Positions 32,499 through 35,700 of a stretch of 64,000 bases of DNA are shown here, piece after piece. The notes under the pieces are model-generated. The model was not told where the DNA came from. It made no database searches and saw nothing but the letters and a program-made list of their open reading frames with translations. Positions within the stretch are counted from its first letter, which is position 1; each line of letters begins with the position of its first letter. This stretch comes from Pseudomonadota bacterium. Lineage in GTDB: Bacteria; Pseudomonadota; Gammaproteobacteria; Steroidobacterales; MnTg04. The stretch covers positions 70,223-134,222 of the forward strand of contig JACZVC010000003.1 in assembly GCA_022572885.1 (NCBI GenBank), read 5' to 3'. The translations under genes were made by a program, and so were the position numbers.

Positions 32499-32506
32499 AT
32501 ATCAAG
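32499..32506. repeat. putative target-site duplication, left copy (ATATCAAG)
   Basis: The 8 bp directly outside IRL match the 8 bp directly outside IRR (ATACCAAG) at 7 of 8 positions. Confidence 0.6.
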
Positions 32507-32529
32507 CGGAAGTATGTACTTATTGAAAA
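32507..32529 (+). repeat. left terminal inverted repeat (IRL) CGGAAGTATGTACTTATTGAAAA
   Basis: Exact reverse complement of 35670-35692. Confidence 0.85.
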
Positions 32530-32586
32530 CGGATTTTAGCCCAAAATAGGAAGAAAACGGGCTGAAAATCGTGGGAAAGTGGGAAA

Positions 32587-32616
32587 TTGCTATAGATGAG
32601 TGGAAAATAGTATAAT
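32587..32616 (+). promoter_or_regulatory. sigma70-like promoter TTGCTA-N18-TATAAT reading into the DUF1902 gene
   Basis: TTGCTA at 32587-32592 and a perfect TATAAT at 32611-32616, about 90 nt upstream of ATG 32706. Confidence 0.5.
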
Positions 32617-32705
32617 CGGCCCACGCTTTTTGCAACATTAAAGAGTATATTATCTGTGCCGATTCATGTAGTTACGCACAGTACTTAATCTAGAGGGAAC
32701 AGGCC

Positions 32706-32975
32706 ATGCCTAACGACCAAGACTGTTTTTATATCGAGCTTACGGTGGACCCAGATAAAGACGGTATTTACGTTAGTAGTAAACAAGTTCCGGGATTGCA
32801 TTTGATGGGATCTAGCATGAATGACATGAGGCCGACGCTTGAAAAGGCCATTAAGCGCCTCTATCTCGACAACAAAGGAACAGATGTCAATGTAATCTGG
32901 TTGTCTAATGCTGAGGACTTTCCGGTAGCTCACGATGTGCCGGTACGGCTCGCTGTTTACGAAAAAGCAGCCTAG
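32706..32975 (+). CDS. DUF1902 / HicB-like small protein (possible antitoxin)
   Basis: 89 aa. The pattern FYIELTVDPDKDGIYVSSKQVPGLHLMGSSMNDMRPTLEKAI resembles the DUF1902 / HicB N-terminal fold signature (..PGL..eg.t.eE..). An SD-like GAGGGA lies upstream. Confidence 0.55.
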   Translation: MPNDQDCFYIELTVDPDKDGIYVSSKQVPGLHLMGSSMNDMRPTLEKAIKRLYLDNKGTDVNVIWLSNAEDFPVAHDVPVRLAVYEKAA

Positions 32976-33007
32976 AAGTACCATAAGGATTGCAGGGACG
33001 GTTGAAT

Positions 33008-33247
33008 ATGATTGCTGTTCGGCTGCTCTCGCGTAAGGTAGTAAAAGAAAGGCTTGATGCGTTTGGTTGCCAGCTTGTCGAGGAATATGACAACCCCTCT
33101 GATTCTTATTATCAATCGTCCTATTGGCGAACTTCCTGGGGGTTCCACTTTTTTGTTCCAGAGTTAGGCGAGAACCGATTGTGTCCAGAGCATCGGTTGT
33201 ACCAAATCCTCGCGGAGCTTTCTGAATTGGCTCCGAGGAAGGACTAG
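33008..33247 (+). CDS. hypothetical small protein, weakly HicA-like
   Basis: 79 aa from ATG 33008 (the track ORF begins at TTG 32990). The segments LSRKVVKERLDAFGCQLV, GFHFFVP and LYQILAEL loosely follow the HicA layout. Weak call. Confidence 0.4.
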   Translation: MIAVRLLSRKVVKERLDAFGCQLVEEYDNPSDSYYQSSYWRTSWGFHFFVPELGENRLCPEHRLYQILAELSELAPRKD

Positions 33248-34230
33248 AAATCTGGATTTAGTTGTTTCGGGCGAAAATTTGTCCTTGTGTCAACTGGTTC
33301 TCGATAACGCAGCCGTTTTCCATCTGCTGCCTGAATCGCTGCCACGGTTCGGTCCCCATCGCTTAGCTTGCGCCCGTTATACCGAAATTCGTATTCGGCC
33401 AGATATCGGTGCAGATGTTTCTTGCTTACCGAGTGGTAAATACCGCTTAGGCCACGTTTCACAATGGCGAAATAGCTTTCTACGGTGTTGGTAGTTACGT
33501 CGCCTCGAACATACTCGCCAGCGGAGTGCTTTACGGTATGGTGTCCACCTTCGTATTCCCGCCCGATGCCACGATATTGTTTGGCTTCGTCCGTCATAAT
33601 CTTAGCTCGGCGATCAACATTGTCACGGATGGCGATTTTCAGGGTCTTGGCTGAGACATCCGGTAGAACCATTGCCCGGACTCGGCCACCGCGCTCGACC
33701 ATGGCCATCACCGGCGTTTTATTACTCCAGGCTTCGCGCTTGTCCCGCGGGTGCCGGGGCTTGCCGCCTACATGGGTTTCGTCAATTTCGACGGTTCCGG
33801 TTAGTGGGTTGCCATCAGTTGGGGCCATGGCGAAGCGGATACGGTGCAGCAGGAACAGGGCTGATTTATAACTGAGGCCAGTCTGACGCTTGATTTCCAA
33901 TGCGCTAACCCCTTTTTTGGAGGTGGCGGCACGCCAGAACCCAAAGCACCAGTGGCGCAGAGGGATGCGAGAATCCTCGAAAACAGTGCCAGTACGGACG
34001 CTATATAACGAATTACAATCCCGACAGCGCCAGCGATAATGCTTCTCCCGACCACCTTTCCGAGACTGCATTTGGTATACGTCCATGCCGCCGCATTTGG
34101 GGCAGGCCGGATAATCGCCCCAGCGGTTCTTTTCCATGAATTCAACAGCCACAGCCTCATTCGCGCAGGCTGTTGGAAGGTCCTGAATTGGCGTGTCGCC
34201 CTTAGTCGATTGGTTCTGTATCTTGCTCAT
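33244..34230 (-). CDS. IS1595-family (ISXO2-like) transposase
   Basis: 328 aa. N-terminal zinc ribbon (CPKCGG...WRCRDC), then the ISXO2-like DDE domain (VEIDETHVGGK, IMTDEAKQY, NTVESYF, and HRYLAEYEFRYN). Confidence 0.9.
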   Translation of the reverse strand: MSKIQNQSTKGDTPIQDLPTACANEAVAVEFMEKNRWGDYPACPKCGGMDVYQMQSRKGGREKHYRWRCRDCNSLYSVRTGTVFEDSRIPLRHWCFGFWRAATSKKGVSALEIKRQTGLSYKSALFLLHRIRFAMAPTDGNPLTGTVEIDETHVGGKPRHPRDKREAWSNKTPVMAMVERGGRVRAMVLPDVSAKTLKIAIRDNVDRRAKIMTDEAKQYRGIGREYEGGHHTVKHSAGEYVRGDVTTNTVESYFAIVKRGLSGIYHSVSKKHLHRYLAEYEFRYNGRKLSDGDRTVAAIQAADGKRLRYREPVDTRTNFRPKQLNPDF

Positions 34231-34237
34231 TGGTATT

Positions 34238-34265
34238 ATTATACTTGATGAAATTATATTGTCAA
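34238..34265 (-). promoter_or_regulatory. consensus sigma70 promoter TTGACA-N16-TATAAT, 7 nt upstream of the transposase ATG (leaderless layout)
   Basis: The minus strand reads TTGACAATATAATTTCATCAAGTATAATAATACCAATG. There is no Shine-Dalgarno sequence between the -10 box and the ATG. Confidence 0.6.
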
Positions 34266-34318
34266 TGCTTGCAGAAAACTATTTGCAAGCATTGCTTGCA
34301 TCCACTATCATGCAAGCA
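34266..34318. promoter_or_regulatory. four-half-site palindromic operator-like array (TGCTTGCA / TGCAAGCA)
   Basis: Half-sites lie at 34266-73, 34284-91, 34293-300 and 34311-18, with spacings of 18/9/18 symmetric about 34292. The central 17-mer TGCAAGCATTGCTTGCA is a perfect palindrome. Confidence 0.6.
34283..34311 (+). promoter_or_regulatory. sigma70-like promoter TTGCAA-N17-TATCAT, 6 nt upstream of the P63C ATG (leaderless layout)
   Basis: TTGCAA at 34283-88, TATCAT at 34306-11, ATG at 34318. No SD sequence. Confidence 0.5.
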
Positions 34319-35337
34319 TGACCAGTTCAGATAGCCCGAAAGCAAGGGGCGGCTACGCAAGGGCCGCGTCGTTAACGTCCAAGCAACGGCGTGAAATAGC
34401 TATAAAGGCCGCTGCAAGCCGTTGGAGAGCTGATCTCCCTCAGGCTACCCACGCCGGAGAACTTAAGATAGGCGATATGACTATCCCCTGCGCGAATCTT
34501 GAAGACGGGACTCGTGTGCTTACAGAGTCCGACTTCATGAAGAACATGGGGATGTATCGCAGCGGTGCGTTGTCGGTAAGACGTAAGGTCGATGATGAAA
34601 CCGGTGCACTAGCGCCGCTTTATCTCGCTTTCAAGAACATAAAACCTTTTGTAGAGAAGCACTTAGGGAATGTGCACCAATCCTTCATCAAGTATCGGAC
34701 TGGTAAGGGGATGGTAGCCCACGGAATAAGCGCCGAGTCAATACCGAAGATTTGCGAAATCTGGCTTGATGCTAAAAAGGCCGGGGTGCTTGGTAGGCGG
34801 CAAGAAAAAATCGCCGAGAAAGCCGAATTGGTAATACGTGCTTTGGCCCACATCGGCATCATCGCTCTGGTTGATGAAGCAACTGGCTATCAGGAAATCA
34901 GGGACCGAAAAGCCCTGCAATCCATTCTGGACAAGTACCTGCGTAAGGAACTTGCAGCATGGGCCAAGAAATTCCCGGACGAGTTCTACAAAGAAATGTT
35001 TAGACTTCGCGGCTGGGAGTGGAAAGGAATGAAAGTCAATCGCCCCAGCGTAGTAGGAAAGTACACCAAGGACCTTGTCTACGAGCGCATCGCGCCAGGG
35101 CTACTCAACGAATTAGAGCGAAAAAATCCCAAGCACACAGTTGGCCGAAGAAAGGCAAAACACCATCAATGGTTAACTGAGGATGTAGGTGATCCGGCAC
35201 TAGCTCAGCATTTGTACGCTGTCATCGGACTAATGCGCGCCTCATCTGACTGGAGCCAGTTAAAGCGCCTGATGAATCGCGCATTCCCTCGTAAAGGGGA
35301 TACGCTGGACCTGCCCTTAGAGGATTTTCCGGATTGA
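34318..35337 (+). CDS. P63C domain-containing protein
   Basis: 339 aa. The N-terminal GGYARAASLTSKQRREIAIKAAASRW segment and the central/C-terminal region resemble phage P22 ORF63 C-terminal (P63C) family proteins, as I recall them. Confidence 0.75.
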   Translation: MTSSDSPKARGGYARAASLTSKQRREIAIKAAASRWRADLPQATHAGELKIGDMTIPCANLEDGTRVLTESDFMKNMGMYRSGALSVRRKVDDETGALAPLYLAFKNIKPFVEKHLGNVHQSFIKYRTGKGMVAHGISAESIPKICEIWLDAKKAGVLGRRQEKIAEKAELVIRALAHIGIIALVDEATGYQEIRDRKALQSILDKYLRKELAAWAKKFPDEFYKEMFRLRGWEWKGMKVNRPSVVGKYTKDLVYERIAPGLLNELERKNPKHTVGRRKAKHHQWLTEDVGDPALAQHLYAVIGLMRASSDWSQLKRLMNRAFPRKGDTLDLPLEDFPD

Positions 35338-35350
35338 TTTATAAAAAAAT

Positions 35351-35433
35351 GCCGGGGTGGCGAAATTGGTAAACGCTGACGACTTGGAATCGTCTGGCTT
35401 TCCGCCTTGCGGGTTCGATCCCCGTCCCCGGCA
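35351..35433 (+). tRNA. class II tRNA, Leu-type body (A73, long variable arm) with anticodon 5'-UGG-3' (Pro); no encoded CCA
   Basis: Manual cloverleaf: acceptor GCCGGGG/CCCCGGC (7 bp); TG; D-arm GCG-AAATTGGTAAA-CGC; T; anticodon stem GACGA/TCGTC with loop CTTGGAA; 14-nt variable arm TGGCTTTCCGCCTT; T-arm GCGGG-TTCGATC-CCCGT; discriminator A. Confidence 0.75.
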
Positions 35434-35450
35434 CTCTAATTATATCAAAT

Positions 35451-35624
35451 ATGACTGACAAAAGAGAGAAACGAGGCCCAAAACCAGAAACCGTCAAGAT
35501 CGACGAAGACTGGGAGGACGCTGTCAAAAAGGCGCTAGAGAAGAAACGCCCGAAAAGTGGGTGGCCTGGAACCAGCGAGGATAAAGGGTCAGAGACCGAT
35601 CCAGAGCCGACAAGCGATAAATAA
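35451..35624 (+). CDS. 57-aa highly charged hypothetical protein
   Basis: My own translation is MTDKREKRGPKPETVKIDEDWEDAVKKALEKKRPKSGWPGTSEDKGSETDPEPTSDK. There is no SD, and an AT-rich TAATTATAT lies just upstream. It is below the track cutoff. Confidence 0.35.
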   Translation: MTDKREKRGPKPETVKIDEDWEDAVKKALEKKRPKSGWPGTSEDKGSETDPEPTSDK

Positions 35625-35669
35625 TCCCACCGATCTTTTTCGCTTTTCGTAACTTATTGATTATTATAC

Positions 35670-35692
35670 TTTTCAATAAGTACATACTTCCG
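35670..35692 (-). repeat. right terminal inverted repeat (IRR)
   Basis: TTTTCAATAAGTACATACTTCCG is the exact reverse complement of IRL. Confidence 0.85.
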
Positions 35693-35700
35693 ATACCAAG
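35693..35700. repeat. putative target-site duplication, right copy (ATACCAAG)
   Basis: See the left copy at 32499-32506. Confidence 0.6.

Follow-up and report, generated by a model that had tools for sequence, protein, structure and literature searches.

A leucine-type tRNA with a proline anticodon in an IS1595-family insertion sequence that keeps CCA codons at fixed transposase sites

We analysed a 64-kb window of a gammaproteobacterial contig (the whole stretch of 64,000 nucleotides, from whose first letter all coordinates are counted) and describe a class II, leucine-type tRNA gene with the proline anticodon UGG that is carried in a 3186-bp element of the IS1595 family of insertion sequences (ISs), at 32507-35692. 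The tRNA is real, is under strong purifying selection and belongs to the core of the IS; its anticodon is conserved and co-evolves with codons of the transposase. We consider it likely that this core component is competent in translation and decodes CCA codons kept in the element's own genes. As to the amino acid delivered there, we tentatively favour, without calling it probable, a leucine-charged tRNA that would make CCA codons of the transposase ambiguous between proline and leucine and would thereby let the element regulate itself.

A conserved tRNA and its codon in the transposase

The gene is the sole tRNA called by ARAGORN in the window (35351-35434 on the plus strand, anticodon tgg at position 35). 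Matched over its full length (35351-35433), it scores 56.5 bits with Rfam RF00005 (E = 1.7e-09; gathering score 29), and its own family covariance model gives it 87.8 bits. The minimum-free-energy fold is the cloverleaf with an additional GGC/GCC variable hairpin: a 7-bp acceptor stem (GCCGGGG/CCCCGGC), U8, a D-arm of GCG-AAATTGGTAAA-CGC, an anticodon stem (GACGA/TCGTC) closing the loop CTTGGAA, a 14-nt variable arm (TGGCTTTCCGCCTT), a T-arm of GCGGG-TTCGATC-CCCGT and the discriminator A73 (A at 35433), with no encoded CCA end. An initial annotation of this DNA had proposed a genuine tRNA with exactly this anatomy and a proline anticodon, and had named a sub-threshold covariance score as a sign to the contrary; the score lies well above the gathering threshold, all listed stems, loops, the variable arm and A73 are found in the sequence, and family covariation agrees with the ARAGORN and Rfam calls. 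Two further assemblies of the element (one ENA contig, one Logan contig) hold base for base the same tRNA and the family as a whole keeps UGG; therefore a sequencing error in the loop, which that annotation had also considered, is unlikely.

More than 60 distinct homologues of the tRNA were found in elements with homologous transposases and a small basic open reading frame (ORF) inside conserved inverted repeats. Viral contigs, scanned for a leucine-like D-arm followed by CTTGGAA, returned six class II tRNAs, five of them distinct and with very different stems. Metagenomes yielded at least 55 ARAGORN calls (at least 47 distinct), plus further copies with very long variable arms, in a scan whose sole requirements were the D-arm and UUGG, so that this sample is selected for UGG. 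At about 55 of the loci reached through the tRNA, tblastn detects a homologue of the window transposase within ~1 kb (27-71% identity), and ~30 of these tRNA/transposase loci have, in addition, a homologue of the 57-aa ORF of the window element. The tRNA lies inside the inverted repeats in the window, as the initial annotation had it, and in every relative with both ends visible; it is often convergent with the transposase gene, within ~100 bp of its 3′ end, and the minimal element (L375, 1.6 kb) consists of the small ORF, the tRNA and the transposase only.

An alignment of 38 family sequences has 99.5% of its cells paired. Compensatory changes on both sides occur in 17 of 20 pairs (192 cells), a result reached by none of 500 shuffles and approached by no slid register, and this covariation supports all four helices and the 7/5 configuration of acceptor and T-stem. 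The alignment shows no variation at U8, A14, G18G19, U33-G36, U48, the T-loop or A73; A73 is present in all 66 parsed family sequences, one excluded pair (L164/L406) having U. Searching the contexts of transposase homologues at 48-84% identity with the family covariance model gave a sample blind to the anticodon, in which 12 distinct elements carry a class II tRNA, 11 with UGG and one (L434) with AGG, and four clade members carry none, one of these retaining a 3′ tRNA fragment. Plasmid-borne relatives at ~40% identity, in Roseomonas, Methylobacterium, Pseudosulfitobacter and Mesorhizobium, also lack the tRNA.

The codon cognate to this anticodon is enriched in the transposase. CCA makes up 36% of the proline codons in 37-42 distinct transposase genes of tRNA-bearing elements, against 7-16% for A-ending codons in seven other four-codon boxes of the same genes (Fisher p ~1e-36, which, like the other codon p-values here, overstates independence because the sequences are related, although neighbouring synonymous sites are visibly saturated). 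The excess is seen individually in 35 of 37 genes. There is no CCA in the transposase genes of four distant tRNA-less relatives, nor in that of the AGG element, whose prolines are encoded by 4 CCT, 2 CCC and 3 CCG codons and where the usual CCA sites are taken by other residues. We found no proline-specific CCA excess in cargo genes, in host genes or in genes around phage copies that lack a transposase; in the 34 host ORFs of the window, CCA accounts for 13% of proline codons. Element-wide composition was rejected as the cause, as cargo genes are A/T-rich in every codon box without an excess specific to proline.

The enrichment is confined to particular sites. CCA occupies an N-terminal (L/I)-P-x-A column, equivalent to Pro19 of the window protein, in 27 of 30 members (p ~1e-19) and a C-terminal Y(R/K)xP(V/I) column in 24 of 26 (p ~1e-18); three loop columns have it in 15/19, 11/12 and 12/16, and the proline of a QLxPxF-stop motif is CCA in the window element, L412, L413, L388 and L437. 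Codons flanking the conserved CCA sites vary freely. Conserved prolines elsewhere, among them those of the zinc ribbon, are encoded by CCG or CCC, and CCA accounts for 14 of 164. The six CCA sites of the window transposase (Pro14, 19, 137, 142, 312 and 326) all fall in tails and linkers outside the Pfam domains, and in segments without confident structure, to which a poor AlphaFold model (pLDDT, the predicted local distance difference test, 56.8) lends weak support; such positions fit places where ambiguity is tolerated or used. The prolines of a GPKP motif in the small ORF are likewise CCA in the window (35478-35480 and 35484-35486) and in 12/22 and 8/16 members. Because the excess is site-specific and is missing both in tRNA-less relatives and in the AGG element, we conclude that the tRNA decodes the element's own CCA codons, with the confidence given at the outset.

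Two other accounts of these codons were rejected. Self-recoding, in which the transposase would require CCR to be read as leucine, finds only one variable column that mixes proline and leucine, and conserved proline columns use all four codons. A programmed frameshift at GGC-CCA-AAA in the small ORF fails because the heptamer is not conserved.

Amino-acid identity and competing explanations

Profile hidden Markov models with masked anticodons, built from canonical class II tRNAs of the fetched loci together with E. coli leuZ, leuT and proM, score the window tRNA at 32.7 bits for leucine, 16.1 for serine, 6.8 for tyrosine and 4.1 for proline, and leucine is the best profile for 42 of 42 short-arm family members. 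In its body it comes nearest to tRNA-Leu(UAA), as in E. coli leuZ. The determinants of leucyl-tRNA synthetase (LeuRS) in E. coli are A73, which is crucial, A15-U48, G18G19, A20a and D-loop/T-loop contacts, the anticodon and the variable arm not being among them (PMC9976931). The window tRNA holds this full set (A73, A15-U48, G18G19 and A20a, with a T-loop of TTCGATC; A15-U48 and A20a were numbered by eye against leuZ and leuT), and the U preceding the T-stem, U48, is invariant in the family. It has the long class II arm of tRNA-Leu and lacks a leucine anticodon (NAG or YAA, with A35); as its anticodon is UGG, it is not a tRNA-Leu in the decoding sense.

Strong proline determinants are G35, G36 and A73, joined by C1-G72 for prolyl-tRNA synthetase (ProRS) of the E. 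coli type (PMC9976931). The first three are present here, and judged against E. coli proM the window tRNA departs from tRNA-Pro in having G1-C72, A15/U48, A37 and the 14-nt arm. Since the bacterial leucine elements are all kept and the acceptor-stem and Levitt-pair elements of a gammaproteobacterial tRNA-Pro are missing, the tRNA is most likely charged by LeuRS, as its nucleotides suggest. The leucine-type body recognized in the initial annotation is thus borne out by both the masked profiles and the E. coli identity set.

The IS core consists of the transposase, the small basic ORF and the tRNA, with the P63C-domain gene of the window element as a swappable passenger. Under the explanation that we tentatively favour, the tRNA would derive from a class II tRNA-Leu(UAA) whose anticodon became fixed as UGG, and its task would be to read CCA at tail and linker sites of the element's transposase as well as in the small ORF's GPKP motif. 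Charged with leucine, it would compete at those codons with the host tRNA-Pro(UGG), so that the choice of proline or leucine at about six transposase sites, and hence activity, would be set by the amount of the element's tRNA. The outcome would be a trans-acting, dose-dependent self-regulation, possibly a copy-number control that may be likened to the multicopy inhibition of other ISs. Leucylation, competition on the ribosome and the regulatory outcome are what we infer. In its strictest form the proposal describes a private deviation from the genetic code in a widespread family of bacterial ISs, in which a leucine-charged tRNA(UGG) re-reads CCA at fixed sites as leucine and its dose sets the ratio of active to inactive transposase; we regard this as possible and hold it with still greater reserve.

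Several observations weigh against a leucine-inserting tRNA. Where CCA-rich columns do not have CCA, the residue is proline with another codon, serine, alanine, glutamine, lysine or aspartate and rarely leucine, so leucine is neither ancestral nor required there. The GPKP motif of the small ORF is rich in CCA and would be damaged by leucine, and such a tRNA would also strike the CCA codons of the host. Faithful supply typically leaves this very signature, a mobile element's genes enriched for the codon that its tRNA reads. C1-G72 is found in 6 of ~66 family members and G37 in about a third, and no promoter is evident directly upstream of the tRNA. Furthermore, 18 distinct phage class II tRNAs combine a leucine-like D-arm and a long variable arm with the anticodon GUU (Asn), G73 and U1-A72 (viral loci L449-L532, e.g., L449 1705-1786 and L465 6898-6978), and in the complete viral scan the same scaffold also occurs with GUG and C73 (His-like), UGA, UCC and the ochre-reading UUA. 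Phages seem, from these sequences, to employ a single class II scaffold under several identities; because they pair it with Asn or His features, the scaffold alone does not fix leucine identity.

These points lead to the main rival, a faithful tRNA-Pro on a class II scaffold, charged by ProRS through G35, G36 and A73, which we judge rather unlikely. The tRNA would then act by gating, in the manner of bldA and its TTA codon, or by phage-like codon supply: transposase synthesis would hinge on the supply of the UGG tRNA, or the element would be freed from the host tRNA pool. The genes of the transposase and the small ORF are enriched for exactly the cognate codon, and one mark of bldA-like gating, a dedicated tRNA with a codon kept at sites of its target gene, is found here (27/30 and 24/26, with the AGG element devoid of CCA). 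Distant tRNA-less relatives have proline (CCC) at the N-terminal site, Pro/Leu mixed columns are lacking apart from the single variable one noted above, the C1-G72 and G37 members lean the same way, and the phage tRNAs with Asn and His anticodons carry matching discriminators. The strength of G35, G36 and A73 as proline determinants also favours it (PMC9976931). However, the window tRNA has none of G72, G15-C48 and G37, and the first belongs to a strong determinant of E. coli-type ProRS, whereas its LeuRS determinants are all intact with no visible block to LeuRS. Faithful charging leaves unexplained why the variable arm is retained and, in a sub-group, lengthened. Gating could be no more than quantitative, as CCA is already read by the host, and codon adaptation is unexpected in a weakly expressed transposase unless something qualitative hinges on it.

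It is improbable that the leucine-charged tRNA is instead general mistranslation cargo, causing low-level Pro-to-Leu substitution throughout the proteome with no specific role for the transposase and leading to stress induction, to a mutator or tolerance effect, or to addiction or abortive infection together with the small basic ORF. This account shares the leucine-type identity, and allo-tRNAs (PMC5389517) and the antibiotic tolerance conferred by tRNAProX (PMC10404621) are precedents; leucine-type UGG tRNAs in phage-like contigs without a transposase (L086, L154/L161 and L168) and PemK, NYN or PIN cargo in relatives would suit it too. It explains neither the site-specific CCA codons of the transposase, their lack of a counterpart in cargo genes and their loss in the AGG element, nor why this IS clade has only UGG or AGG.

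A role outside decoding is very improbable, whether the tRNA-shaped RNA were to serve the transposase or the small basic protein as cofactor or scaffold, to act within the element's transcripts as a processing signal for RNase P or RNase Z or as an insulator, or to be a decoy or replacement substrate for a tRNA-targeting nuclease. The frequent convergence of the tRNA with the nearby transposase 3′ end, GC-rich hairpins in place of a promoter upstream, the basic small protein always nearby and the RNase-type cargo of relatives are compatible with such a role. Against it, the near-invariant A73, U33, T-loop and D-loop elbow and the G37 of a third of members are those of a charged, decoding tRNA, the co-variation of codon and anticodon points to ribosomal decoding, and a decoy needs neither a leucine-type body nor matching codons.

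Finally, a decaying tRNA-Leu(UAA/CAA) passenger, the alternative offered in the initial annotation, or an error of sequencing or assembly in the anticodon loop has a negligible chance of being correct and is excluded: UGG is two transitions from UAA and the body resembles tRNA-Leu(UAA), but UGG is the conserved state in 11 of the 12 elements of the anticodon-blind sample and in more than 60 distinct sequences with intact, compensated stems, and the tRNA is identical in three assemblies.

The consequences depend on the amino acid. If the private-code reading is true, it would be a new control of transposition at the level of translation and the first natural Pro-to-Leu recoding device. With leucine charging, every host that carries the element would have low-level Pro-to-Leu ambiguity at CCA, which matters for proteomics, and annotation would be affected as such genes are now labelled tRNA-Pro. 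With proline charging, ProRS would accept a class II tRNA and the identity rules of tRNA-Pro would have to be revised. The site-specific CCA codons offer an experimental handle on self-regulation of a transposon through its own decoding rules.

The carrier element and variants of the family

The element (Table 1) has both hallmarks of the IS1595 family. The transposase combines a zinc ribbon at residues 24-73 (PF12760, 1.2e-09) with a DDE domain, DDE_Tnp_IS1595, at residues 143-285 (PF12762, 5.9e-40); it matches NCBIfam NF033547 at 1.1e-57 and has more than 7700 homologues at E<=1e-20. The ends are perfect 23-nt inverted repeats, with 0 such matches expected by chance, flanked by an 8-bp target duplication that agrees at 7 of 8 positions in the window and perfectly in L412 and L413. 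In the family these repeats (CGGAAGTATGTACTT...) are conserved, and the core motif AGTATGTAC is present in 43 family loci. GC content of the element is below that of its surroundings.

Table 1 Features of the IS1595-family element and its tRNA in the window
Feature	Position	Strand	Basis
Left target-site duplication copy, 8 bp, ATATCAAG	32499-32506	.	7/8 match to right copy
Left terminal inverted repeat, CGGAAGTATGTACTTATTGAAAA	32507-32529	.	100% complementary to 35670-35692
IS1595-family transposase, 328 aa	33244-34230	-	Pfam, NCBIfam
CCA codons Pro312 (33295-33297) and Pro326 (33253-33255), C-terminal tail of transposase	33253-33297	-	Family codon columns
CCA codons Pro137 and Pro142, linker before DDE domain	33805-33822	-	Outside Pfam domains; structure model of low confidence there, no secondary structure
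CCA codons Pro14 (34189-34191) and Pro19 (34174-34176), N-terminal tail of transposase	34174-34191	-	Family codon columns
Promoter-like site of transposase gene, TTGACA-16-TATAAT, 12/12	34238-34265	-	Consensus match only
P63C-domain protein, 339 aa, variable cargo	34318-35337	+	Pfam PF10546 at 5.5e-38
Class II leucine-type tRNA, anticodon UGG (35385-35387), A37, A73	35351-35433	+	ARAGORN, Rfam, family alignment, profiles
Conserved small basic ORF, 57 aa, contains KRGPKPETVKIDEDWEDAVKKALEKKRPKSGWP	35451-35624	+	Homologues beside family tRNAs
Right terminal inverted repeat	35670-35692	.	Perfect partner of 32507-32529
Right target-site duplication copy, ATACCAAG	35693-35700	.	7/8 match to ATATCAAG

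The tRNA begins 13 nt downstream of the P63C stop codon. The initial annotation had noted this position, but a link to the gene as such is not supported: none of 80 genomic P63C homologues (up to 60% identity) is closely followed by a tRNA. P63C is cargo. A distant P63C homologue occupies the matching position in L336 only, and the cargo of relatives differs (P63C, helix-turn-helix, a 260-317-aa family, NYN and PemK/CopG); the window P63C gene has 1 CCA among 14 proline codons. Neither the window element nor its relatives contain a synthetase gene. The 57-aa ORF has no Pfam or NCBIfam match; its family, basic and 45-60 aa long, has the consensus ..GPKPExLKIxGxWxxAVKKALxKKRPxxGWPK...

The sequence TATAAA stands at 35340-35345, 5 nt ahead of the tRNA. 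The initial annotation had pointed to this box; across the family we found no conserved promoter upstream of the tRNAs, and a sigma-70 promoter of the tRNA's own was rejected on this ground. Many family tRNAs (e.g., L298, L302, L304 and L413 2055-2083) have a GC-rich hairpin 5-15 nt upstream rather than a promoter-like site. The gap that separates the divergently oriented genes for the transposase and P63C holds two neighbouring imperfect palindromes (34265-34319), which are rich in TTGCAAGCA, overlap the 12/12 promoter and are probably operator sites.

Five related elements, namely that of the window and those of L412, L413, L414-L416 and L423, lie in the same host surroundings, immediately upstream of dtd-tatABC. 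They have different target duplications, and their transposases are 67-84% identical, against 54-66% for the flanking TatC, Dtd and DctP; vertical inheritance is for these reasons an unlikely cause of the common location, which suggests a regional target preference and not one inherited insertion.

Family members vary in their variable arm. A sub-group (e.g., L340, L350, L320, L151, L412, L414 and L425) has an arm of 28-40 nt with a recurrent inner CCTY...RAGG hairpin, which far exceeds that of an ordinary tRNA-Leu, and ARAGORN often misses these genes. Some elements hold a second, irregular tRNA-like gene: L412 4646-4744(+), L413 4516-4589(+), L429 5758-5844(+) and L436 1429-1520(-). Those of L412, L429 and L436 score 41-45 bits against the Rfam tRNA model, and the L413 copy is seen only by ARAGORN (as tRNA-Ala, tgc) and the family model (24.5 bits). 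The loops of their anticodon regions contain TTGCAA or CTCGCAC; the nominal anticodon is that of Ala or Cys, G3-U70 is absent, and the discriminator is U in three and A in L436. Neither the Rfam tRNA model nor the family model finds a second tRNA in the window element.

Among relatives without the tRNA, one (L426/L427/L430/L431, e.g., L426 2815-6301) is inserted in a phage SNF2 helicase gene, and L426 5445-5511 is a leftover 3′ tRNA fragment comprising the T-arm and the acceptor strand. L444 (Roseomonas marmotae p1318-1) and L445 (Methylobacterium oryzae pMOC1) combine the transposase with an unknown protein of 266-288 aa, PIN/VapC and a different small charged ORF. Leucine-type UGG tRNAs also occur in the phage-like contigs named above. 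In L154 169-1777 and L161 8477-10085, an AT-rich phage tRNA array comprises Lys(UUU), two Tyr(GUA) and two Lys(CUU) genes, and a 74-nt tRNA with the Ser anticodon ACU and no long arm adjoins the leucine-type tRNA(UGG), with no transposase nearby. A blastn search with the 83-mer found no match in phage and plasmid records and only 25-nt T-arm matches in E. coli genomes; sixty E. coli genomes have 'tRNA-OTHER' features sharing this 25-nt T-arm/acceptor match, and the carriers among the matches listed are mostly O157:H7 or other bovine or clinical strains.

Comparison with known systems

The closest bacterial analogues are tRNAs in which body and anticodon disagree. Allo-tRNAs (Mukai et al. 2017) are natural bacterial tRNAs of this kind from soil metagenomes, often near toxin-antitoxin or transposon ORFs; they have an 8/4 or 9/3 geometry, mostly serine identity and many anticodons, and are active missense suppressors in E. 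coli (PMC5389517). The window tRNA shares the disagreement of body and anticodon with them, but it has a 7/5 cloverleaf, a leucine-type body and a single conserved anticodon, and it is fixed in one IS family and coupled to the codons of that family. The tRNAProX/tRNAProA genes of Streptomyces and Kitasatospora combine a proline body with anticodons for Ala, Asn or Thr, lie beside a special ProRS isoform and, in the case of tRNAProX, give antibiotic tolerance by mistranslation (PMC10404621). Both they and the window tRNA are dedicated, genome-encoded bacterial tRNAs that mix the identity and anticodon of two amino acids; here the converse combination, a leucine body with a proline anticodon, travels on a transposable carrier with no nearby synthetase, which places it outside that group. 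Bacterial tRNAs with mismatched body and anticodon form a very short list, which our findings extend by a large natural family that is easy to test.

Nematode nev-tRNAs, reportedly described by Hamashima and colleagues in 2012, are said to be class II leucine-type tRNAs with Gly or Ile anticodons that are charged with leucine in vitro. They differ from the window tRNA in being eukaryotic and chromosomal and in being unconnected with any transposon or with site-specific codons.

The bldA tRNA-Leu(UAA) of Streptomyces is a faithful, chromosomal tRNA and the sole reader of a nearly absent codon, TTA. Both cases pair one tRNA with a codon kept at particular sites of particular genes, and the window tRNA, too, descends from the tRNA-Leu(UAA) type. 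In contrast to bldA, its codon CCA is also used by the host, one IS carries both the tRNA and its target gene, and the amino acid is in doubt. Phage tRNAs that match phage codon usage have an identity that agrees with the anticodon and a bias that is genome-wide. As with these, the codon of a mobile element's tRNA is over-represented in its own genes; here, however, the bias is limited to a single codon at fixed positions in one or two core genes, the tRNA body is mismatched, and the carrier is a DDE IS of 1.6-5 kb.

The IS1595 family includes elements with passenger genes, in ISfinder groups such as ISNwi1+ and ISNha5, and with these the window element shares a DDE transposase with an N-terminal zinc ribbon, inverted repeats, an 8-bp duplication and variable passengers; the distant plasmid-borne IS1595 relatives differ from it in lacking the tRNA. 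A full-text literature search, which did not include ISfinder, returned no account in which an IS1595 element carries a tRNA, in which a natural leucine-type tRNA(UGG) is described, or in which the IS1595 family has a conserved small basic ORF. None of these nearest known systems is an IS with a co-evolving tRNA. The site-specific coupling of CCA to the transposase is a new finding, and, as far as our search shows, this would be the first DDE insertion sequence with a tRNA as a core, co-evolving part, within a type of element, IS1595, that is abundant.

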